From contig CAWEIZ010000002.1 of assembly GCA_963809325.1 (NCBI GenBank), forward strand, positions 807,130 through 871,129: a DNA stretch of 64,000 nt, in the 5' to 3' direction. The stretch is from an uncultured Actinomycetes bacterium. Its GTDB lineage: Bacteria; Actinomycetota; Thermoleophilia; Gaiellales; JAICJC01. The notes under the pieces are model-generated. The model saw only the letters and a program-made list of their open reading frames with translations. It was not told the origin of the DNA and made no database searches. Position numbers and translations under genes: made by a program. Shown here piece after piece: positions 1,033 through 57,172 of this stretch (positions are counted from its first letter, which is position 1; every line of letters begins with the position of its first letter).

Positions 1033-1745
1033 CGCAGCGCCCCCAGAGCCTGCTCGCGGGCGGGGTGGCCGCCCCCGCCGCTTCCGTCGAGCTCGCACGC
1101 GACCCGGCCCGGCCGTGCCGTCAGGACAACCACGCGGTCGCACAGGCGCAGCGCCTCGTCGAGGTCGTGCGTGACCAGGAGGGCCGTTCTCGGCCGGGCC
1201 CCCATGGCGGCCGCGAGCCACTCCTGCATCTCGGTGCGGGTGATCGCGTCGAGGGCGCCGAACGGCTCGTCGAGGAGCAGCACGGGCTTCTCGGCGAGCA
1301 GGGTGCGCGCGAACGCGACCCGCTGGCGCATGCCGCCCGAGAGCTCCCAGGAGCGGGCCCGCTCGAACCCCTCGAGGCCGAGTTCGGCGAAGAGCTCCGC
1401 AGCCCGCCCGCGCGCCTCGCGCCGCTCGACGCCGGCGTTCTCGAGCGGGAGGGAGGCGTTTCCGAGGGCGTCGCGCCAGGGCATCAGGAGGTCGGACTGC
1501 GGCATCAGCGCGCAGCGCTCGAGCCGCCCGCGCTCGTCGCCGGCGCCGCCGACCGAGATCGCCCCGCGGTCGGGGCTCTCGAGGCCGGCGACCATGCGAA
1601 GCAGCGTCGACTTCCCGCACCCGCTCCGCCCCACGAGCCCGACCGTCTCGTCCGAGCCGGCGCGGAAGGCCACCCCGTCCAGCGCCACGACGGGCCCGTA
1701 GCTCTTCGTCACGTCGGTGACGACGATCTCGCTCACTGCGTGCAT
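1029..1745 (-). CDS. ABC transporter ATP-binding protein (SsuB/TauB/ThiZ-like)
   Basis: Walker A GRSGCGKST, signature LSGGMRQR, Walker B LLLDEPF, H-loop LVTHD; alternative GTG start at 1736. Confidence 0.92.
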   Translation of the reverse strand: MHAVSEIVVTDVTKSYGPVVALDGVAFRAGSDETVGLVGRSGCGKSTLLRMVAGLESPDRGAISVGGAGDERGRLERCALMPQSDLLMPWRDALGNASLPLENAGVERREARGRAAELFAELGLEGFERARSWELSGGMRQRVAFARTLLAEKPVLLLDEPFGALDAITRTEMQEWLAAAMGARPRTALLVTHDLDEALRLCDRVVVLTARPGRVACELDGSGGGGHPAREQALGALR

Positions 1746-1832
1746 CCCTTCGCTGGCATTACCCAGATCAGGTTCGCGGGTCGGCGCCTCTGCGGCACCC
1801 TCTCAGCCCTGCGGGCTCCCCGGCAAACGCTC
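1741..1832 (-). ncRNA. TPP riboswitch (THI element)
   Basis: The minus strand reads GGGGAGCCCGCAGGGCTGAGAGGGTG...GACCCGCGAACCTGATCTGGGTAATGCCAGCGAAGGGA, matching the conserved GCTGAGA and CCTGAT...AATGCCAGCG.AGG cores. It lies directly upstream of a THI5-type ABC operon. Confidence 0.93.
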
Positions 1833-1869: not shown

Positions 1870-2814
1870 CTAGGAGTCGAGCTGCTCCATCGCGCATTCG
1901 GCGGGCGGCTTGTCGTCGCGGAAGCGAAGCAGGCGGGCGCCGTGGCGGATGCGCCGCCCGCTCACGTGGTCGAACGAGACCTCGGCGACCAGCGCGGGCC
2001 GAAGGCCGCGCCACTCCCGGTCCTCCTTGCCGGCGCTCCAGCGATTGGGCTCGTTGGCGCCGTGCTCGCCCGTCTCGTACGGCGTCACGACGCCGACCAG
2101 CTCGCGGGCCCTGGCCGCCGTGAAGCCCGACGTGTGGCCGACGGGCCAGAGGCTCTCGCCGTCGTAGAGGGCCAGGATCAGCGACCCGACCGTGCCCTCG
2201 GCCTTGCCCGGCCGCCAGCCGATGACGACGCAGTCGATCGTCCGCACCCGCTTCACCTTGACCATGCCCTTGCGCTCGCCCGGCAGGTAGGGCGCGTCGG
2301 CGCGCTTCGCGATGACGCCCTCGGCGCCGTGCAGCCACGGCTCGGCCTCGGCGGGCGATCCGGTGGCCGGCGTCAGCTCGATCGGGTCGGCCACCGTCTC
2401 CTCGAGGATCCGCCGCCGCTCCGCGAACGGCCGCTCGAGCAGCGACTCGTCGTCTAGGGCGAGGATGTCGAAGGCGACGAAGGTTGCGGGCGTCTTCTCG
2501 GCCAGCATCGCGACGCGCGACGCCGCCGGGTGGATGCGCTCCTGGAGCGCCTCGAAGTCCTCGCCGCCCTCGGGGGTGCGGATGACGAGCTCACCGTCGA
2601 GCACGTAGCGGCCCTCCGGGAAGCGGAGCTCGGGGAAGTAGCGCCCGAGTGCCTTGCCGTTTCGCGACTGCACGTGGACGTCGTCGCCGTCCACGAACGC
2701 GATGGCCCGGAAGCCGTCCCATTTCGGCTCGTAGAGCCAGCCGTCGCCGTCGGGTAGCTCCGCCCCCGATCGTGCGAGCTGCGGCAGGACCGGGGGCGAG
2801 AGCGGAAGCGGCAT
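1870..2814 (-). CDS. ligC: ATP-dependent DNA ligase, LigC type
   Basis: Motif I YEPKWDGFR, LDGELV, FVAFDIL, EGVIAK, MVKVK and a C-terminal OB domain (EVSFDHVSGRRIRHG). Confidence 0.9.
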   Translation of the reverse strand: MPLPLSPPVLPQLARSGAELPDGDGWLYEPKWDGFRAIAFVDGDDVHVQSRNGKALGRYFPELRFPEGRYVLDGELVIRTPEGGEDFEALQERIHPAASRVAMLAEKTPATFVAFDILALDDESLLERPFAERRRILEETVADPIELTPATGSPAEAEPWLHGAEGVIAKRADAPYLPGERKGMVKVKRVRTIDCVVIGWRPGKAEGTVGSLILALYDGESLWPVGHTSGFTAARARELVGVVTPYETGEHGANEPNRWSAGKEDREWRGLRPALVAEVSFDHVSGRRIRHGARLLRFRDDKPPAECAMEQLDS

Positions 2815-2826
2815 CGGCCGCGAGTG

Positions 2827-3031
2827 TAGATGAACGATTCCACGCCGCCGCGCGCCTGGACATCCGGACTGTTATCGGTACGCGGCAGTGGCGGGGCTGC
2901 GGCTGCGAACCGTCGCATCGCTGCGTCCTCGGGAGCGTCGATATTTCAACCAATATCGACGCTCCCTGCGTCCTTGCGCTACTCGGTTCTCGCCGCCCAG
3001 GACATCACGGCGGCGTAGAACCGATCATCTA
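2827..3031 (+). mobile_element. TIR-bounded structured repeat, copy A (minimal form, about 205 bp; MITE-like)
   Basis: TA-GATGAACGATTCCACGCCGCC ... GGCGGCGTAGAACCGATCATC-TA; perfect 15-bp central hairpin at 2931-2966; shares blocks GCGCGCCTGGAC, GGGGCTGCGGCTGCGAACCGTCGCATC, TGCGTCCTTGCGCTACTCGGTTCTCGCC and GGACATCACG with four other loci. Confidence 0.75.
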
Positions 3032-3697
3032 TCGACGCGACTGCATGAACAGGAGCGCGAGCTGCCAGATCGCGACCAGGGCACCGACCACGTAGGTGAG
3101 GGCGGCGGCGGTCAGGACCTTGCGGGCGACCGGGACCTGCGACTGGCTGATGACGCCCTGCGTGCTCAGCATCGCCATCGCCTTCTTGCTGGCACCGAAC
3201 TCGACCGGCAGCGTCACGAGCTGGAACAGCACGATCGCCGAGAAGAGCGCGACGCCGACCAGCGCGAGGCCCGACGCCTGCGTGATGATCCCGAACAGGA
3301 AGATCGGGAACCAGGCCTGCGAGGCGAACCCGGCCGCGGGGACGAGCGAGCCGCGCAGCTTGAAGCCGGCCTCGCCGCGCGCGTGCTGGAACGCGTGCCC
3401 TGTCTCGTGGGCGGCCACGGCCACAGCCGCGACCGAGTTGGAGTTGCCGACCGGGGCCGACAGCCGCATCGTGTTCGAGCGGGGGTCGTAGTGGTCGGAG
3501 AGCTGGCCGGCGATCCCCTCGACCGTGACGTTCTGGAGGCCGCCGGAGTCGAGCATCTGGCGGCTCACCTGCGCGCCTGTGAGGCCCGATGCAGCCTGGA
3601 CCTTCGAGCCGTCGGCGAACGCGCGCTTCACCCACGCCTGGGCTGCCAGACCGAGGATCAGCGGCGGAACTGCGAACAGGATGTACCAGTAGTACAT
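3029..3697 (-). CDS. Membrane zinc metallopeptidase (YugP / Zn_peptidase_2 family)
   Basis: Start MYYWYILF after a GGAGGGG RBS; LSDHYDPR, VAAHETGHAFQ (HExxH), TLPVEFGAS, AAALTYV. Confidence 0.9.
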   Translation of the reverse strand: MYYWYILFAVPPLILGLAAQAWVKRAFADGSKVQAASGLTGAQVSRQMLDSGGLQNVTVEGIAGQLSDHYDPRSNTMRLSAPVGNSNSVAAVAVAAHETGHAFQHARGEAGFKLRGSLVPAAGFASQAWFPIFLFGIITQASGLALVGVALFSAIVLFQLVTLPVEFGASKKAMAMLSTQGVISQSQVPVARKVLTAAALTYVVGALVAIWQLALLFMQSRR

Positions 3698-15393: not shown

Positions 15394-15713
15394 TAGATGA
15401 GTGATTCCACGTCCCCGCGCGCCTGGACGCACGTCGGTGGTTAGTAGCCGCGTTCTGGCGGGGCTGCGGCTGCGAACCGTCGCATCGCGGCGTCCTCGGT
15501 CGCGCCGATATTTCAACCAATATCGCCCGGCGGCGCCTGCGTAATCGCAGGCGCCTTCCGAACCCTGTCAAGCCGTTCCGGCTTGACAGATCCTGCGTCC
15601 TTGCGCTACTCGGTTCTCGCCCGTTCGCGACCTGCTGGTAGCAGATCGCTCACGACCGCCGCAAGCCAAGGCTTGCGGCTAGGACATCACGGCGACGTGG
15701 AATCACTCATCTA
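15394..15713 (+). mobile_element. TIR-bounded structured repeat, copy B (320 bp; MITE-like)
   Basis: Perfect 20-bp inverted repeat TAGATGAGTGATTCCACGTC / GACGTGGAATCACTCATCTA; internal hairpin cassettes Y (15532-15589) and X (15622-15679). Confidence 0.82.
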
Positions 15714-17300
15714 CGCCTCGCGGGGCACGCGCGGCTTCGCCGCGTACATCGCGCGGTCTGCGGTGCGGAAGAGCGGGCGCGGATCGTCGCCGTCGCGCGG
15801 GCAGACCGCGACCCCGAAGCCGGCCGCGAGCGCCTCGTCCCGCGCGGCGAACGCCGCGGTCATCGCCTCGCCGACGCGGTCGACCGCCGCCCTCGCCTCG
15901 TCATCGCCGGTTTCCGGCAGGATGAGGGCGAACTCGTCGCCGCCGATGCGAAACGCGGCGTCGGCGGTGCGGAGCGCGCTCGTGAGCACCGCGCCCACGA
16001 CCTCGAGCGCCTCGTCGCCGGCCGCATGGCCGTTCCTGTCGTTCAGGGCCTTGAACCCGTTCAGATCGCAGAGCACGAGGGCCATGGGGTGGCCGTAGCG
16101 CATCGACCGCGACACCTCCTGCTCGAGCCGCTCGTTGAAGGCGCGCCTGTTGAGCAGGCGGGTCAGCGGATCGTGCTCGGCGAGAAACTGCATCTCCTCG
16201 TACTGCGCGGCGGTGTCCAGCGCGGTCGTTGCCTGGTTGGCGAAGACGCGCAACGCCTGGAGCTTGCGCTCGGACGGGACGAGGCGGTCGGTCGGGTCGT
16301 CGGCCCAGATCGTGCCCATGACCTCTCCGGCGCGGCTCCAGAGCGGGACGACGAGCCAGTGGTTTCGCCACGCGAGCGGCCCGCGCCCGCTTCGCGCCGA
16401 CTCGTAGGTGTGGTGCTCGGGAGCGACCCGCTCGAGACCCTGCTGGTGGTCGAGCAGGTAGCAGCCCTCCACCTCGAACTGCGGGTCGAGGAGGCGCTCG
16501 ATCTGGGCGAACGGCATACCCGTGTTCACGGCCGGATCGTCCAGGTCCCACCCGTGAGTGGCGCGCGTCCGGAAGGCGCCCGTCTCGGGGTCCGGCAGGT
16601 CGATGCAGACGTTCTCGAAGCCGAGCGCCGTGTGGATGCCGTCGCACACCGACCGGAGGATCTCGTCGATCGCGAAGGTCTCCGTGAGGCGCGAGGACAC
16701 CTGAAGCAGCTGCTCGAGCGCGGCTCGGTGACGGGCGGCCTGCTCCGCCTCCTGGGTGCTCTGGACGGCGATTCCGGCGTGGTCGGCCATCGCGACGAGC
16801 ACGTCGAGCTCCTCGTCGGTCGGGATGCGGCCGCTGGAGGGCTCGTCGACGGACAGGATGCCGATGAGATGCCCGTCCGGGTGTCGCAGCGGGACGAACA
16901 GGGCGTCGAGCGGATGCCAGCCGTCCGGTCCGGGCCGGGCCGCGACGGGAGGGACGTACGAGCCCGGCGCGTGGGTCTCCCAGTCGAACTCGCCGTGCGG
17001 CACGTGGTAGGCGCCGCGGCGTGAGAAGCGCGAGTCGAGCAGCGGCTCCCACACCTCGCGTCCGCGCGCGTCGCCCAGGAGCCGCTCGGCGTCCGGGCTC
17101 CCGTGCACGGTGGTCACCTCGAAGTCGTCCCACGCCGGGCGGTGCAGGTGCACGGTCACGGTGGCGAAGCCGAGCGACTCGGAGATCGACTTCGCGATCG
17201 ACGCGAGGAGGCCGCCGAGCTCCTCCTCAGACCGCACGACGCGGGTGACCTCGAGGAATCCGCGGAGCCGCGAGAGCGCTTCAGGATCGTGAGGGGTCAC
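15711..17300 (-). CDS. Diguanylate cyclase, GAF-GAF-GGDEF (paralog 1)
   Basis: HDPLTRLLNRR, DLNGFKALND, RTAD I-site and GGDEF; two GAF-like domains; GTG start at 17300. Confidence 0.9.
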   Translation of the reverse strand: MTPHDPEALSRLRGFLEVTRVVRSEEELGGLLASIAKSISESLGFATVTVHLHRPAWDDFEVTTVHGSPDAERLLGDARGREVWEPLLDSRFSRRGAYHVPHGEFDWETHAPGSYVPPVAARPGPDGWHPLDALFVPLRHPDGHLIGILSVDEPSSGRIPTDEELDVLVAMADHAGIAVQSTQEAEQAARHRAALEQLLQVSSRLTETFAIDEILRSVCDGIHTALGFENVCIDLPDPETGAFRTRATHGWDLDDPAVNTGMPFAQIERLLDPQFEVEGCYLLDHQQGLERVAPEHHTYESARSGRGPLAWRNHWLVVPLWSRAGEVMGTIWADDPTDRLVPSERKLQALRVFANQATTALDTAAQYEEMQFLAEHDPLTRLLNRRAFNERLEQEVSRSMRYGHPMALVLCDLNGFKALNDRNGHAAGDEALEVVGAVLTSALRTADAAFRIGGDEFALILPETGDDEARAAVDRVGEAMTAAFAARDEALAAGFGVAVCPRDGDDPRPLFRTADRAMYAAKPRVPREA

Positions 17301-17316: not shown

Positions 17317-18915
17317 TCATGCGACGAAATGGATGTGGGCGCCGGTGCGCTTGGCCTCGTACATGGCGGCGTCCGCATCCCGCAGGAGCCGCTCGGCGTC
17401 GGTCAGGCCGCCCTCGCCGACGATCACGCCGAAGCTCGCCCGAAGCGGCGTTCCGGCCCGCTCGCCGGCTCCCTCGAGGTTCTCGGCGATGCGCTCGATC
17501 ACGGCTCGCGCCTCGGGGGCGGAGGTCTCGGGGAGGAGCAGCGCGAACTCGTCGCCGCCGATCCGGTACGCGGTGTCGGCGGCGCGCAGCCCGGCGCGCA
17601 GGATGAGCCCGAGCTGCTCGAGGGCGGCGTCGCCCGCCAGGTGCCCGTGGCGGTCGTTCACCGACTTGAACCCGTCGACGTCGAGCACGACCAGCGTGAA
17701 CGGGCGCCCGTAGCGGGTCGACCGCGTCATCTCGGCCTCCAGCCTGACCGCGAACGCGTGGCGGTTCAGGAGGCGGGTGAGCGGGTCGTGCTCGGCGAGG
17801 AACCGGACCTCCTCGAGGCGCCCCGCCGAGTCGAGCGCCGCGGTGGCCTGGTTCGCGAAGACCCGCAGCGCCTGCATGAGCTGCCGCGACGGGACGAGCC
17901 GGTCCTCGGGATCGTCGGCCCAGATGACGGCGATCACCTTGCCCTCGCGGTCGAGGAGCGGGACGACGAGCCAGTGCCTGTCCCAGGCCCAGGGGCCACG
18001 GCCGTTCATCACCGACCGGTACATGCGGTGGCCGGCCGGGAGCCGCAACATCGCCTGCTCGTGCGTGAGCAGGTAGCAGCCCTCGACCTCGAACGGCGGG
18101 TCGAGAAGGGGCGCGAGCTCCCACATCGAGAGCGGAGCGTTCTGGGCCAGCTCGTCGAGCGTCCAGCCGGCCGTCGCACGCGTGATGAACACCCCCGTCC
18201 CGGCGTCGGGGAGCTGAATCGAGACCTTCCGGAACCCCAGCGAGTGCCCGATCCCCTCGCAGGTCGCCTGGAGGATCGCCTCGACCGACGGCGTCTCGGC
18301 GAGCCGCGACGACACCTGCAGGAGCTCGCGAAGCGCGAGCCGGTGATGGGCGGCCGCGGCCTTCTCCTGGAAGCTCTGGAGGGCGAGGGCGACGTGGTCG
18401 GCGACCGCCACGAGCACCTCCAGCTCCTCGTCCGACGGGCGCGTGCCCGTGTAGGGCTCACCGACCGACAGGATCCCCAGCATGTGCCCGTCGGAGTGGA
18501 GCATCGGCACGAACAGCTCGTCGTCGGGGTGCCACGCGTCGGGGTCGGCGCTCGGCTCCCAGGCGGGGACGTACCGCTTGCCGACGTCGCCCTCCCAGTC
18601 GAACGTCCCGTGCGGGATCAGATAGGTGCCGCGGCGCTCGAACCGCTCGTCGAGGAGCGGAGCCCACGCGGCCCAGTCGAGGGTGTCGCCGAGGAGCGCC
18701 CGGCGTGCGTCGTCGGAGCCGTGCACCGTCGTCACCTCGAAGTCGTTCCACGCGGGACGGTAGAGGTTGATGACGACGGTGTGGAACCCGAGCGAGGTCG
18801 CGATCGAATCCGCGATGGCCTCGAGCAGGGCCGATTGCTCGGTCCCTTCCCGGACGAGCCGGGTGACCTCCAGGAGGCCGCGAAGGCGGTCGATGGTCGA
18901 CGGGTTCTCGGGCAT
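17317..18915 (-). CDS. Diguanylate cyclase, GAF-GAF-GGDEF (paralog 2)
   Basis: HDPLTRLLNRH, DVDGFKSVND, RAAD I-site and GGDEF; collinear with paralog 1; ATG at 18915. Confidence 0.9.
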   Translation of the reverse strand: MPENPSTIDRLRGLLEVTRLVREGTEQSALLEAIADSIATSLGFHTVVINLYRPAWNDFEVTTVHGSDDARRALLGDTLDWAAWAPLLDERFERRGTYLIPHGTFDWEGDVGKRYVPAWEPSADPDAWHPDDELFVPMLHSDGHMLGILSVGEPYTGTRPSDEELEVLVAVADHVALALQSFQEKAAAAHHRLALRELLQVSSRLAETPSVEAILQATCEGIGHSLGFRKVSIQLPDAGTGVFITRATAGWTLDELAQNAPLSMWELAPLLDPPFEVEGCYLLTHEQAMLRLPAGHRMYRSVMNGRGPWAWDRHWLVVPLLDREGKVIAVIWADDPEDRLVPSRQLMQALRVFANQATAALDSAGRLEEVRFLAEHDPLTRLLNRHAFAVRLEAEMTRSTRYGRPFTLVVLDVDGFKSVNDRHGHLAGDAALEQLGLILRAGLRAADTAYRIGGDEFALLLPETSAPEARAVIERIAENLEGAGERAGTPLRASFGVIVGEGGLTDAERLLRDADAAMYEAKRTGAHIHFVA

Positions 18916-45214: not shown

Positions 45215-45220
45215 CGCCTG

Positions 45221-45419
45221 GACGATTGATTCGATGCTGCCGTGATGTCCTGGGCGGCGAGAACCGAGTCCGCGAGGACGCAGGGAGCGTCGATATTGGT
45301 TGAAATATCGGCGCGACCGAGGACGCCGCGAGACGACGGTTCGCAACCGCAGCCCACCACAAACGCGCCACCGACCACCGTTGGACGTCCAGGCGCGCGG
45401 GGGCGTGGAATCACTCGAC
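45221..45419 (-). mobile_element. TIR-bounded structured repeat, copy C (about 199 bp, inverted, degenerate or mosaic)
   Basis: The minus strand has GAGTGATTCCACGCCCCCGCGCGCCTGGAC...GCGAACCGTCG...CGATATTTCAACCAATATCGACGCTCCCTGCGTCCT...CTCGGTTCTCGCCGCCCAGGACATCACGG; no TA flanks. Confidence 0.7.
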
Positions 45420-48559: not shown

Positions 48560-49138
48560 GTGGGCAAGGTCTTCGACGAGATCGACGACAGGCTGACCGG
48601 CTGGATCGCGGCCCAGCAGCTCTTCTTCGTCGCCACGGCGCCGTCGGGCGACGGCGGCCACGTGAACTGCTCGCCGAAGGGGCCGATCGAGAGCCTGCGG
48701 GTGCTCGGCCCACGCCGGGTCGCCTACCTCGACCTGGTCGGATCGGGCGCCGAGACGATCGCGCACCTGCGCCAGAACGGCCGGATCGTGATCATGCTGT
48801 GCGCCTTCGTCGGGCCTCCGCGCATCCTGCGGCTGTACGGCCGGGGGCGGATCGTGACGGCCGCCGATGCGGAGTTCGACGAGCTCGCCGGCTGGTTCCA
48901 GATCCGCGACGCCTATGCGACCGAGCCGGTGAAGCGCTCAGTCGTCGTCGTGGACGTCGATCGCGTCGCCGACTCGTGCGGCTACGGCGTGCCGCTCATG
49001 GAGCCCGTGGGCGACCGCCCGCAGCAGGCGCTCTGGGTCGAGCGCAAGCTCGCGCAGGGCGGTCCGGACGCGATCGCGGCCTACCGGGCCGAGCACAACG
49101 TCCGCTCGATCGACGGCCTGCCCGCGCTGGACGGCTAG
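48560..49138 (+). CDS. Pyridoxamine 5'-phosphate oxidase family protein
   Basis: FFVATAP, VNCSPKG, YLDLVGSGAETIAHL, MLCAF.GPPRILRLYG, SCGYGVP. Confidence 0.87.
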   Translation: MGKVFDEIDDRLTGWIAAQQLFFVATAPSGDGGHVNCSPKGPIESLRVLGPRRVAYLDLVGSGAETIAHLRQNGRIVIMLCAFVGPPRILRLYGRGRIVTAADAEFDELAGWFQIRDAYATEPVKRSVVVVDVDRVADSCGYGVPLMEPVGDRPQQALWVERKLAQGGPDAIAAYRAEHNVRSIDGLPALDG

Positions 49139-49513
49139 ATCGGTGATTCCCAATTCCCGCGCGCCTGGACGTACCGCTGCTCGTGCAGGCCCGTCGCGGT
49201 GGGGCTGCGGCTGCGAACCGTCGCATCCACGGGGGACCTGCTGGATAGCAGGTCTTCCCGTGACCGCTGCAAGGCGTTCGCCTTGCAGCTTGTCCTCGGT
49301 CGCGCCGATATTCACCAATGTCGGCCGGCGGCGCCTGCGTAATCGCAGGCGCCTTCCGAACCCTGTCAAGCCGTTCCGGCTTGACAGGTCCTGCGTCCTT
49401 GCGCTGCTTGGTTCGCAGCCCGCTCGCGACCTGCTGAGTAGCAGGTCGCTCACGACCGCCGCAAGCCCAGGGCTTGCGGCTGGGACATCACGGAATTGGG
49501 AATCAACGATCTA
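49136..49513 (+). mobile_element. TIR-bounded structured repeat, copy D (378 bp, longest; two X cassettes)
   Basis: CTAGATCGGTGATTCCCAATTCC / GGAATTGGGAATCAACGATCTAG (22/23 match); the left TA belongs to the upstream TAG stop and the right TA abuts the downstream GTG start. Confidence 0.82.
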
Positions 49514-50491
49514 GTGCCCGAGACGACGCTCTACGGGCCCGGGCAGTCGCGGTTCGCCCGCCTCCTCGAGCGGCGCGAGGAGCGGCGGCCGGACGAGACC
49601 TCACGGGCGCTCCGCGGCAAGCTCCTGACCGGGATCAGGGGGCGGGTGATCGAGATCGGCTGCGGAGGCGGCCCCGCCTTCGAGCACTACCCGCCGGAGG
49701 TGGAGCGAGTGCTCGCCGTGGAGCCCGACCCTGTCGCCCGCGCGGCGGCCGCAGAGAGCGCGGCCGCGGCGGCGGCTCCGATCGACGTGGTCGAGGGGTT
49801 CGCCGAGCGCCTGCCGGCGGGAGACGGCATGTTCGACGCCGTCGTCTGCATCTGGGTGCTGTGCAGCGTGCCCGACGTGGCGGCGGCGCTGCGCGAGTTC
49901 CGCCGGGTGCTCGTGCCGGGCGGCGAGCTGCGCGTATACGAGCACGTCCGCTCGCCCCACGCCCCGTTCCGCGCCGTCCAGCACGCGGTCGACTCGCTCT
50001 TCTGGACGCGGTCGCTCGGCGGCTGCGAGACGACGCGCGACACCGAGGCCGCGATCCGCGCCGCGGGCTTCGAGTTCGACCGGATCGAGCGCGGCTTCCA
50101 GTCCTCCTCGCTGCTCACGATCACCGCCGCGCCGTACATCCTCGGCACGGCGCGAAAATTGGGGTCTGACCCCGTTCCTGCATGCCCAAATGCGGTTGGT
50201 GCGGCGAACCACTGGGGCCAGGCCCCGGACGGGGTTTGGCCCCATGGGGTCTGCGGCCGGCACGGCTGCGCAACACCGGGGTCTGACCCCGATGTTGCGC
50301 CGGTTCGGGCGCCTGAGGCCCGGAGCCGAGCTCCGGGCCTCGCACAGACGATGGCGTGCACACGTGGGGGGCTCGTGGGGGGAGCCTGCTCCCCCCACGG
50401 ATCTATTCGTGGGCGGCGAGGAACTCGCGGAGCATCGGCATGTAGACCTCCGGATGCTCGGCGAAGCACAGGTGCGAGCCGTCAGGGATGA
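49514..50491 (+). CDS. Class I SAM-dependent methyltransferase; recognisable fold ends near 50150 and the ORF runs on through a repeat cluster
   Basis: VIEIGCGGG, VEPDP, LPAGDGMFDAVV, VLCSVPD, RRVLVPGGEL..YEHVR, PYILGTAR. Confidence 0.8.
   Translation: MPETTLYGPGQSRFARLLERREERRPDETSRALRGKLLTGIRGRVIEIGCGGGPAFEHYPPEVERVLAVEPDPVARAAAAESAAAAAAPIDVVEGFAERLPAGDGMFDAVVCIWVLCSVPDVAAALREFRRVLVPGGELRVYEHVRSPHAPFRAVQHAVDSLFWTRSLGGCETTRDTEAAIRAAGFEFDRIERGFQSSSLLTITAAPYILGTARKLGSDPVPACPNAVGAANHWGQAPDGVWPHGVCGRHGCATPGSDPDVAPVRAPEARSRAPGLAQTMACTRGGLVGGACSPHGSIRGRRGTRGASACRPPDARRSTGASRQG
50151..50399. repeat. Cluster of REP-like palindromes and hairpins
   Basis: GGGGTCTGACCCC at 50161 and 50278; variants GGGGCCAGGCCCC 50214 and GGGGTTTGGCCCC 50231; perfect 12-bp stems at 50315-50341 and 50374-50399. 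Confidence 0.75.
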
Positions 50492-55141: not shown

Positions 55142-56401
55142 ATGCGACGCAGCCTCGTCCTCGCCGTGCTCGCGGCCGCCATCGCGGCCTCGAGTGTGCT
55201 CGCGCCCCCCGCGCTCGCCGCGAGGCGGTACGTCAGCTCGGCACGCGCGTTTCAGCGCGCGGTTCTCGACTTCCAGCGAAGCGGCGGCAAGATCGTGCTC
55301 CTGCCCGGCGATTACCGCCAGCCGCTCGAGATCGGGCCGCGGTCGGCGCGGCCGCTCAGCATCGTGGGAGCGCCGGGGGCCCGCGTGCAGTCGCTCAGCA
55401 TCGTCCGCTCGCACGCGGTCACCATCGAGAGCCTCGTCGTCCGCCCGCTCGGCGGCAACGCCCAGGTGCTCGCCAAGCGCTCGAGCGAGATCGTCTTTCG
55501 CGGGGACACGTTCACGGCCAAGCGCACGAGGTACAAGGTCGGGCTCCGCCTCGACTACTCACGCAACGTGGTCGTCCGAAACAGCCAGTTCTCGCACTGC
55601 GGCGATCACACGCCGAAGTGGTCGACGTGCCTGCTGCCGCGCTGGGCGTCGCATCTCACCGTCATGACGAGCTGGTTCCACGACTGCCGCGGCTGCGACT
55701 TCATCGGCGGCAGGGCCGGCCCGGATCTCGTGATCCAGGACAACCGCTTCGACCGCGCGCTCGCGTGTAAGACGGGCTGGGTGAAGTGCAGCCATCAGGA
55801 TCTGATCGAGCTGTTCAATGCCGACGGCATGCTCGTCACCCGCAATATCTTCGGCGTCAGCCAGGGGGGCGGGGCGCAGCTCAACCTGGCGACGGCCGAC
55901 GACAACGTCCGCGTCGTCGACAACCTCTTCCTGCGGGACGACCCTCGCACTCCGGGCATCGTCCCGCGGGTGGCGATCCTGGTCGGGACGAAGACGACCC
56001 CCCGGATCCCTCGCGACGTCACGATCGTGAACAACACGATCCTCTCGGGGGCCCCCAAGGGAGGGCACGCCGAGTCCTCGATCGTGCTCAGCCCCCACTA
56101 CTCGACCATGCTGTCGAGCAACCGCCCGGTGATCGCGAACAACGTGCTCGCGTGGCTCATGGCCCCCGCGCTCGTGTGCGGCCTCGCCCGCGACTCGCTG
56201 CACAACGTCGTCGGGGCCGGCACCGCCTGCGGGGTCACCGACGTGGTCGGCGACCCGGTGCTCGATCCCGGCGGGAGGCCGACGGCCGGCTCGACGCTCG
56301 TGATCGACCTGGCCGACCCGGCGCTCGCGCCGCCGCTTGACATCGACGGCGCGGCGCGGACGGGTCCGCCCGACATCGGCGCGTACGAGTTCTCCGGCTA
56401 G
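55142..56401 (+). CDS. Secreted right-handed beta-helix protein with a choice-of-anchor-Q-like C-terminus
   Basis: Signal peptide; repeated VVVRNSQF, IQDNRF, VVDNLF, IVNNTI; ends IDLAD...DIDGAAR..PDIGAYEF. Confidence 0.75.
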   Translation: MRRSLVLAVLAAAIAASSVLAPPALAARRYVSSARAFQRAVLDFQRSGGKIVLLPGDYRQPLEIGPRSARPLSIVGAPGARVQSLSIVRSHAVTIESLVVRPLGGNAQVLAKRSSEIVFRGDTFTAKRTRYKVGLRLDYSRNVVVRNSQFSHCGDHTPKWSTCLLPRWASHLTVMTSWFHDCRGCDFIGGRAGPDLVIQDNRFDRALACKTGWVKCSHQDLIELFNADGMLVTRNIFGVSQGGGAQLNLATADDNVRVVDNLFLRDDPRTPGIVPRVAILVGTKTTPRIPRDVTIVNNTILSGAPKGGHAESSIVLSPHYSTMLSSNRPVIANNVLAWLMAPALVCGLARDSLHNVVGAGTACGVTDVVGDPVLDPGGRPTAGSTLVIDLADPALAPPLDIDGAARTGPPDIGAYEFSG

Positions 56402-56820
56402 CTGACGGTCAGCGTGCCCTTCATGCCGGCGGCCTCGTGCCCCGGCACCGAGCAGTAGAACGTGTACGTCCCGGCCTTGAGGTCGGCGATGTCGATCGTC
56501 GAGACGCCGCCGTCCTGGACGATGTCACCCTTCTCGTCGACGCCGTTCCCCTTGAGGGAGATGTCGTGGCCGGTCGACTGCGGGTTCATCGACTTGATCA
56601 CGACGTGGCCGGCCGTTGCCGTCGCTGTGGTCTCCGCGTAGGCGAAGCCGCTCGCGGCGACGTCGATCTCGACGACCTGGCCGCCGGAGGCCGAGCCGCC
56701 ACCGCCGCCCGAGGAGCCGCCGCCGCTCGAGCCGCCACCGCCGCAGGCACCGGCGAGGAGCGCGATGACCGCGGCCCCGGCGATCCAGCGGCCTCTGATG
56801 ATGCTGCTCTGATGGGTCAT
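56398..56820 (-). CDS. Cupredoxin (plastocyanin/azurin-like) lipoprotein
   Basis: LLAGAC lipobox, Gly/Ser linker, GHDI and YTFYCSVPGHEAAGM type-1 copper ligands. Confidence 0.88.
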   Translation of the reverse strand: MTHQSSIIRGRWIAGAAVIALLAGACGGGGSSGGGSSGGGGGSASGGQVVEIDVAASGFAYAETTATATAGHVVIKSMNPQSTGHDISLKGNGVDEKGDIVQDGGVSTIDIADLKAGTYTFYCSVPGHEAAGMKGTLTVS

Positions 56821-56854: not shown

Positions 56855-57172
56855 GATGGGTGATTCCCAATTCCCGCGCGCCTGGACGTCCGGATGTGGA
56901 CTGGGATTTGGCTCTGGTGGGGCTGCGGCTGCGAACCGTCGCATCGCTGCGTCCTCGGTCGGGCCGATATTTCAACCAATATCGCCCGGCGGCGCCTGCG
57001 TCATCGCAGGCGCCTTCCGAACCCTGTCAAGCCGTTCCGACTTGACAGGTCCTGCGTCCTTGCGCTGCTCGGTTCTCGCCCATGAGCGACCTGCTGGATA
57101 GCAGGTCGCTCATGACCGCGGCAAGCCGTCGGCTTGCCGCTGGAACATCACGCGAATTGGGAATCAACCATC
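56855..57172 (+). mobile_element. TIR-bounded structured repeat, copy E (318 bp)
   Basis: GATGGGTGATTCCCAATTC / GAATTGGGAATCAACCATC (18/19 match); cassettes Y and X present; no TA flanks. Confidence 0.8.

Follow-up and report, generated by a model that had tools for sequence, protein, structure and literature searches.

The insertion sequence IS630 itself prefers the target 5'-CTAG-3'. MITEs mobilised by IS630 elements, such as RUP, are short non-autonomous derivatives which have only their ends in common with the IS (PMC2229807). Elements of the IS982 family are about 1 kb long and carry one transposase gene, which is sometimes frameshifted, inverted repeats (IRs) with conserved 5'-AC ends, and direct repeats that vary in length (Fayad et al. 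2020, PMC7335449), and a MITE derived from ISCca4 of this family is known in Cardinium (PMC9769881). IS5 and MITEPsy1 use CTAG/YTAA targets with a 4-bp duplication (PMC3189936), and IS870 and ISMt1 gain the stop codon of their own ORF from a target TAG, as described in papers that cite Fournier et al. (1993). The TA-flanked MITEs ERIC/RU-1, Correia/NEMIS and QMITE2 of Coxiella are often located at gene 3' ends or overlap them, sometimes with changed C-termini as a result (PMC2759123, PMC2229807, PMC5896051).

The window, that is the whole 64-kb stretch of DNA that was analysed, has 72% G+C and contains one repeat family in five copies, A to E (Table 1). Its nearest relatives are uncultured Gaiellales/Thermoleophilia MAGs. 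The window has a syntenic counterpart in contig CAWGEC010000011, with protein identities of 92-93%, and the gene labels were all confirmed with Pfam, including those of the methyltransferase, the ligC-like ligase and an acyl-CoA dehydrogenase. The terminal inverted repeats (TIRs) of the window copies are about 22 nt long and start with GAT(G/C)..TGATTCC. Copy D, with the TIRs GATCGGTGATTCCCAATTCC / GGAATTGGGAATCAACGATC, is a long variant with additional hairpin modules, which matches the other copies by BLAST and has a strong predicted fold (-238 kcal/mol). Copy C lies 5 nt past the TGA stop of greA, and copy E between the divergent genes for a cupredoxin-like protein and radA. The earlier note, made from the sequence alone, had described the stops adjoining A, B and D as a junction TA completed to TAG by the terminal G or C of the element, copy D as lying in CTAG on either side, and copies C and E as lacking TA flanks; direct reading gives the same coordinates in every case. 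The Zn-metallopeptidase stop is composed in this way of the terminal C of copy A and the flanking TA, and the G that completes CTAG at the right junction of copy D is at the same time the first base of the methyltransferase start codon.

Table 1. Repeat copies and adjoining genes in the window.
Feature	Positions	Strand	Length (nt)	Flanks and junctions
Copy A	2829-3029	+	201	Basic form; TA flanks 2827-28 and 3030-31
Copy B	15396-15711	+	316	TA flanks 15394-95 and 15712-13
Copy C	~45220-45417	-	~198	Degenerate ends GAC.../...GTC; flanks TG/CG
Copy D	49138-49511	+	374	TA flanks 49136-37 and 49512-13; CTAG rebuilt at 49135-49138 (left) and 49511-49514 (right)
Copy E	56855-57172	+	318	Flanks GA/GC
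ligC-like ATP-dependent DNA ligase gene	1870-2814	-		Downstream of copy A
Zn-metallopeptidase gene (PF04298)	3029-3697	-		Stop TAG, complement of 3029-3031
GAF-GGDEF gene	15711-17300	-		Stop TAG, complement of 15711-15713
PNPOx-like gene (PF01243)	48560-49138	+		Stop TAG 49136-49138, left junction TA plus G 49138 of copy D
SAM-dependent methyltransferase gene (Methyltransf_11)	49514-50150	+		GTG start at 49514

Further loci were collected via a conserved internal 20-mer, so that the flanks are an unbiased sample while the diversity of the element is not. There were more than 101 genomic matches to the 20-mer, nearly all of them in Gaiellales/Thermoleophilia MAGs, and the delimited set comprises 76 well-bounded copies at 75 distinct insertion sites with 150 ends. 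Carriers of the family include the complete MAG chromosomes OY969804.1, OY969568.1 and OY969812.1. The length ranges from 123 to 374 nt around a basic form of about 200 nt; locus L088, tried as a candidate for a long element, was rejected, being a deletion variant of 123 nt. The TIR arms are on average complementary at 19-20 of 22 positions and co-vary, with an inner-TIR identity of 0.80 between the arms of a copy as opposed to 0.50 when partners are shuffled. Folding is very strong in all copies, and the interior blocks show high conservation between species, for which seed bias accounts in part. The element is a MITE, being short, non-coding, multi-copy and TIR-bearing. Rfam searches with the window at the gathering threshold and with copy D at the E-value threshold returned no family for it (best score 21 bits, against a gathering score of 100 bits), BLAST of copy A against the PLSDB plasmids gave no match, and no TIR pairs 0.6-3 kb apart were present among the first 261 loci.

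The terminal G and C are invariant in 76/76 copies, and TA flanks on both sides are present in 35 of them. A C precedes the left TA in 37 of 51 copies and a G follows the right TA in 34 of 44, in both cases far above the expectation from composition, and the third flanking position is C/G in 56% of the ends. The target is therefore CTAG and not TA alone, in line with the CTAG preference that had been proposed for the element from the window.

Empty sites in relatives give the same picture. The earlier note predicted that related genomes would have an uninterrupted TAGTG stop/start overlap at the position of copy D, and this overlap, with a single TA, is found at the orthologous PNPOx-to-methyltransferase junction in four of them (GGG-TAGTG-CCC in L102, GTG-TAGTG-CCG in L104, GCC-TAGTG-AGC in L108 and GCG-TAGTG-TCC in L109), while a fifth element-free junction (L103) reads TGATG. 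Judged from these orthologs, the methyltransferase gene had earlier been coupled to the PNPOx-like gene through the TAGTG overlap. Copy D leaves the PNPOx-like protein unchanged and places 376 nt between the two genes; the methyltransferase is intact over its first 213 or so residues, and a late frameshift within a run of A, perhaps a sequencing error, then lengthens it in comparison with its orthologs.

At the site of copy A, four empty orthologs (L182, L184, L186 and L188) read cgN-TAG-ACTCGCGGCCG-ATG, where the TAG is the same peptidase codon and is followed by ACTCGC. Since these orthologs read TAG, the ancestral A site was a TAG stop. The caveat that removal of copy A leaves TAC is correct as a reading of the window and is explained by the empty sites, as the TAC beside copy A is a later G>C change in the site copy that is no longer used as a stop. 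Three further relatives have 5-8 nt separating two TAs at this site (TAG-CTTCATC-TAG, TAG-TTTGATC-TAG and TAG-CGGG-TAG), and these short inserts look like remnants or footprints of the element. The sequence TACACT lies 8 nt before the ATG of the ligC-like gene, where the orthologs conserve TAGACT. That the left TA of copy A preserves a putative -10 box of ligC is compatible with the sequence but is not supported by the promoter consensus scan of copies A and D, which gave no promoter-like match; in the terminator scan of the same two copies the central hairpin of A gave the only terminator-like match, and an unconvincing one.

For the B site, where according to the earlier note removal of the copy would restore TAA, the metagenome scan returned no clean empty ortholog, only one locus with the same insertion (L262) and one with a deleted remnant, a solo TIR behind a TAA stop (L268); in more distant orthologs the C-termini differ. 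A further empty site lies outside the window, where L356 reads gtC-TAG-g at a position that is occupied in L007 and L355, and L007 is itself a canonical CTAG target with a later gain of 2 nt at the left junction. Precise presence/absence polymorphism with a defined target signature is found at the D, A and L007 sites. Flanks and empty sites together bear out the earlier view of the repeat as a transposon that cuts in with a TA at each junction and rebuilds TAG with its terminal G or C.

The two flanking bases are not equally well conserved. The inner base, A at the left end and T at the right end, is retained in 133 of the 150 ends (89%), and the outer base, T and A respectively, in 104 (69%; p=6e-5). 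In the best-preserved copies the values are 100% and 80%, and in decayed copies the loss of the inner base goes along with that of the TIR, whereas the outer base remains at about 68%. The non-canonical outer bases (C 22, G 17, A 7) follow the background composition and not a transition-biased decay spectrum. This hints that the true ends could be AG...CT, inserted at CT^AG without duplication, a model whose fit is no worse than that of a 2-bp TA duplication; either way, CTAG and hence TAG is rebuilt at both junctions. An IS5-like 4-bp duplication of CTAG was excluded, as the terminal G and C are invariant even where the outer flanks are not C/G. The comparison of occupied with empty sites has the same expectation under the TA duplication and CT^AG models, and the relatives of the cysW-cysA locus L084 read TGA-CGCC-ATG and give no clean alignment.

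The pattern used to search for an autonomous partner was the common 22-nt TIR, in which negation at two positions kept out the subterminal sequence of the MITE. It led to a 773-bp deletion derivative (L342) with the same TIRs and CTA/TAG flanks, the truncated transposase gene of which matches NCBIfam NF033520 (IS982 family) and has homologs of 226-256 aa with PF01609 and PF13612. ISs of 993-999 bp (L344, L345/346 and L359) likewise have CTA/TAG flanks, with GATGATTGATTCCACG(C/G) at both ends. The IRs of the partner IS are 16-17 nt long, and the 17-nt termini GATGATTGATTCCACGC are common to the MITE and the IS of about 1 kb, the interiors of which are otherwise unrelated. An autonomous element with matching termini and a transposase is thus at hand. 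Where a single ORF encodes it, the transposase has 256 aa, whereas L344/L345 have two ORFs of 227 and 63 aa instead; in L345 the right end plus TA likewise makes the stop of a host gene. Against NF033520 the scores are 117-123 bits (E 1e-34 to 1e-35), with a curated cut-off of 130. The full-length transposase P0078 scores 123 bits (E 1e-35) over profile positions 1-228 of 243, compared with at most 32 bits against the IS5 and IS4 models. By the profile matches of its transposase the element appears IS982-like, yet atypical in its GA/AG ends and fixed TA/CTAG junction.

The association with stop codons was counted with a purpose-made codon-usage gene caller, trained on these loci and not a standard tool, which gave sensible calls for the window genes; genes scoring below 20 or shorter than 80 aa were disregarded. 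The junction TAG is the stop of a called gene at 35 of the 75 sites, 6 of which have stops at both ends, between convergent genes. Counted by ends, the stop of an inward gene lies exactly at the junction in 41 of 150; in 3 more ends the gene stops at a TGA at element positions 3-5 and in 6 more at a TGA at positions 7-9. When the element is removed together with one TA, the codon becomes TAG in 28, TAA in 4 and TAC in 2 cases, so that 32 of 34 reconstructable sites regain TAG or TAA. The cases are insertions into stops that were already there, not truncations.

Whether this is more than expected depends on the choice of null model, for which unoccupied sites within the same 850 kb were classed. 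For any TA, 5666 sites are genic, 1790 intergenic and 238 in stops, which gives a stop fraction of 0.117 among non-genic sites. The corresponding numbers for CTAG are 16, 70 and 72, so that stops account for 46% of all and 51% (0.507) of the non-genic sites, or 0.46 under a stricter gene filter with 66 CTAG in stops. The palindrome is about 8-fold under-represented (267 occurrences, against 2226 expected from base composition or 757 from a Markov model). Compared with the TA expectation of 0.117, the 35 of 75 sites at stops are a strong excess (p=6e-14), and in the window alone the probability of at least 3 of 5 copies at stops is about 0.013 under the same fraction. Compared with the CTAG expectation of 0.46-0.51, the observed 0.47 is no excess at all (p=0.5-1.0). 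Double stops behave in the same manner, with 6/35 among occupied against 10/66 among unoccupied sites, these 10 being unoccupied CTAGs common to two convergent genes. The enrichment of genomic flanks for stop codons which the earlier note expected is present when measured against TA and absent when measured against CTAG. The observed 47% equals the availability of CTAG, and stop-specific targeting is therefore unnecessary. Overall, the stop association is real, and it is what is expected of an element that seeks CTAG and is removed from genes by purifying selection.

We put the probability at roughly 0.78 that the element is a MITE mobilised by an IS982-like transposase at CTAG, with the stop association as a by-product of site availability. 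This reading draws on the observed anatomy, empty sites, target logo and partner IS, and on the match in frequency to CTAG availability. The MITE would be mobilised in trans by the IS982-like DDE transposase of the ISs of about 1 kb, which would integrate it at the palindrome CTAG and so turn an empty CTAG into an occupied C-TA-[G...C]-TA-G. The end bases of the element regenerate CTAG at both junctions, and with it a TAG on the strand that reads inwards. About half of the CTAGs outside gene bodies in these 72%-GC genomes are NNC-TAG stops, some of them common to two convergent genes. With insertions within genes presumably purged by purifying selection, about half of the surviving copies adjoin a stop codon, which stays TAG with the protein unchanged; such insertions are probably neutral.

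One set of numbers points beyond availability. Both CTA...TAG flanks are intact in 24 copies, of which 20 lie at stops (p=0.0016 against 0.507), and the far-side TA is intact in 22 of 29 at-stop copies compared with 31 of 80 ends of other copies. Age was rejected as the cause of degenerate flanks, as at-stop and other copies are equally diverged from the family profile. The excess arises in part because at-stop status requires an intact TA, and selection keeps the TA of a stop, which biases this subset; the rest could reflect an additional preference or selection. It is, however, rather unlikely that the element occupies a stop-codon niche beyond what availability provides, by a transposase preference for gene ends or by selection for silent termini, possibly with a benefit to the host. 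The features that could be adduced are the AG which regenerates TAG and the sequence TA-GATGATTGA with stops in three inward frames, together with the 72 of 150 ends that have an inward stop within 20 nt, the 9 further genes that end at TGA codons of the TIR, the 6 copies that part convergent genes otherwise sharing a CTAG, and the conserved, very strongly folded interior; a conceivable host benefit would be a bidirectional terminator or a spacer between overlapping convergent genes. Against this, the 35 of 75 sites equal the CTAG null and the double stops match it too, the three-frame stop of TA-GATGATTGA is present in only 36 of 150 ends and is inherited from the IS termini, and the scans of A and D detected no U-tract terminator or promoter. 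The stronger form, in which the element evolved for this niche, with (A)G...C(T) termini and TIR TGA codons making insertions silent and the folded interior acting as a portable bidirectional terminator or spacer, has for us a similarly small chance, perhaps a shade better. If true, such a spacer would uncouple overlapping pairs, both TAGTG stop/start pairs and convergent genes with a common CTAG. A related possibility is an IS982-like DDE transposase that integrates at the CT^AG centre without target duplication.

The original interpretation, namely an IS630-family MITE that targets TA and strikes stops since TA in a GC-rich genome would be concentrated in stop codons and -10 boxes, has become quite improbable. 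TA is indeed present at both junctions, copy D does sit in CTAG, and there is precedent in the IS630-type elements known to use CTAG/TA as well as in IS870 and ISMt1. However, no autonomous elements with these termini were found other than those encoding an IS982-like DDE_Tnp_1 transposase, for which the NCBIfam/Pfam profile comparison gave no IS630-type or DDE_3 match, and the family attribution has to be given up. The TA/CTAG habit in common with IS630 is a resemblance of behaviour and not of family. Nor is TA concentrated in stop codons, as only 238 of 7694 TA (3%, or 12% of those outside genes) are located there, and it is CTAG that is concentrated in stops; the C before the left TA and the G after the right TA exceed composition, which a target of TA alone does not explain. 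That the repeat is a structured RNA gene or 3'-UTR module spread by recombination, with its position behind stops reflecting function, can practically be set aside, as the interior blocks conserved in many species, the strong folding and the frequent position directly after genes are outweighed by precise empty sites in relatives, termini identical to those of a transposase-bearing IS, copies in divergent promoter regions (copy E), the lack of an Rfam match at the scores given above, and an orientation towards the adjoining gene that is unbiased (23 left and 18 right ends) and so argues against a strand-specific 3'-UTR RNA function.

With the MITE mobilised at CTAG by an IS982-like transposase as the preferred reading, the stop-codon pattern is an explicable by-product of ordinary target choice and involves no new mechanism. 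It provides a quantitative example of how a rare palindrome, CTAG, channels insertions onto stop codons and leaves the proteins unharmed. The MITE/IS pair has apparently not been described before, and abounds in the soil Gaiellales/Thermoleophilia, which are poorly studied. For annotation, the copies mark gene ends, explain spurious ORF extensions into repeats and split gene pairs that were once coupled or overlapping, and CTAG specificity and non-AC ends are added to what is known of the little-studied IS982-like transposases.

Among the known systems, the IS982 family is closest in its transposase (nearest NF033520, with PF01609/PF13612) and in an IS of about 1 kb with a single or split ORF and terminal IRs, and the score of 123 is just under the curated cut-off of 130. 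It differs in that the present ends read 5'-GATG, or AGATG with the inner base counted in, and not the 5'-AC of the family, and in that the TA/CTAG junction is constant, whereas the direct repeats of IS982 vary in length; the interior of the present MITE is not derived from the IS interior. With IS630 and RUP the present element has in common the TA at both junctions in a CTAG/NTAN target, the CTAG preference and short derivatives with only the IS ends, but IS630 has a Tc1/mariner-type transposase (DDE_3 plus HTH), unlike the IS982/IS5-like DDE_Tnp_1 found here. IS5 and MITEPsy1 are similar in the palindromic CTAG-type target and the DDE transposase of the IS4/IS5 superfamily, in line with weak secondary NCBIfam matches to IS5; in contrast to their 4-bp duplication, the invariant terminal G/C here belongs to the element. 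A CTAG target linked to a TAG stop made at the junction is shared with IS870 and ISMt1, where the target completes the transposase ORF, whereas here the element end completes the stop of a host gene. ERIC/RU-1, Correia/NEMIS and QMITE2 resemble the present MITE in being small, hairpin-forming, TA-flanked and often located at gene ends. Their effect is mostly a C-terminal fusion or extension, while in the present case the stop is rebuilt exactly and the rate of insertion at gene ends is explained quantitatively by the availability of CTAG.

In all copies of the MITE (termini positions -2 to +1), the flank base next to the element (A/T) shows a conservation like that of the terminal inverted repeat (TIR), being kept in 89% of the ends and in 100% of those of the best copies, and the outer flank base (T/A) is kept in only 69% of the ends, with a variation that tracks the background composition. 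As judged from the sequences, AG...CT may be the true ends of the MITE, with integration into CT^AG without duplication. Throughout the collection, one arm of a copy co-varies with the other at TIR positions 4-5 and 14-22; the GATG and GATC types are always matched between both arms of a copy, and complementarity between the arms is maintained for the inner TIR subtypes CCACGCC, CCCAATT, CGATATC and CCGAATTC. The identity of arm versus arm is 0.80, compared with 0.50 for shuffled partners. The inner TIR is variable also among copies of the partner IS.

At the peptidase-ligC junction (about locus positions 2160-2180), precisely where copy A sits in the window, two TAs are separated by 5-8 nt in three relatives (L183, L185 and L187), and the sequences found there are TAG-CTTCATC-TAG, TAG-TTTGATC-TAG and TAG-CGGG-TAG. 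These short stretches are similar to what excision would leave as a footprint, or to remnants of different TIR subtypes after deletion, which suggests that one stop-codon site has been used repeatedly. Decay of the MITE by internal deletion is seen at two other loci: in L268 (~657-690) just a 23-nt solo TIR is left behind a TAA stop, and L088 has a 123-nt copy on the minus strand with the centre missing.

The long variants B, D and E carry inserted hairpin modules that the 200-nt form lacks. One of these is a two-hairpin unit of ~64 nt (GACCTGCTGG.TAGCAGGTC plus GCAAGSC...GSCTTGC), which occurs twice in direct orientation in copy D, and another is a central hairpin pair (GGCGCCTGCGTAATCGCAGGCGCC and CCTGTCAAGCC..GGCTTGACAGG). 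The modules give the impression of small hairpins, mobile or duplicating, that are nested inside the MITE as a second layer.

Features of the window and of the IS copies.
Feature	Position	Strand	Remarks
Hairpin modules, copy D	49227-49290, 49413-49481
Hairpin module, copy E	57080-57141
Hairpin module, copy B	~15622-15685
Further hairpin module, copy D	49326-49392		equivalents in B and E
Convergent gene pair	55142-56401; 56398-56820	+; -	common CTAG stop
TPP riboswitch	1727-1832	-	RF00059, 61 bits, above gathering score
Tandem GAF-GGDEF paralogs (2)	15711-17300; 17317-18915	-
Split transposase, L344	1201-2072		overlapping 227- and 63-aa ORFs
Split transposase, L345	1201-2069		overlapping 227- and 63-aa ORFs

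An unoccupied CTAG at 56398-56401 is the simultaneous stop codon of two convergent genes, and double-stop targets of this kind have been split by six MITE copies elsewhere. The tandem GAF-GGDEF paralogs have a DNA identity of ~72% and a repeat spacing of 1615 nt, and copy B adjoins the stop of the downstream one. The TPP riboswitch is found a short way downstream of the ligC-like gene. In the methyltransferase ORF (~50140-50170), the frame changes by 1 nt within an A-run, so that the end of the orthologs (...ARKIGV*) is lost and ~110 extra codons follow, reaching into the convergent gene; either the sequence is in error here or the late frameshift is real.

The transposase is a single 256-aa ORF in other IS copies, and its splitting in L344 and L345 may reflect programmed frameshifting or decay. 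Programmed frameshifting has been described for some IS982 members.
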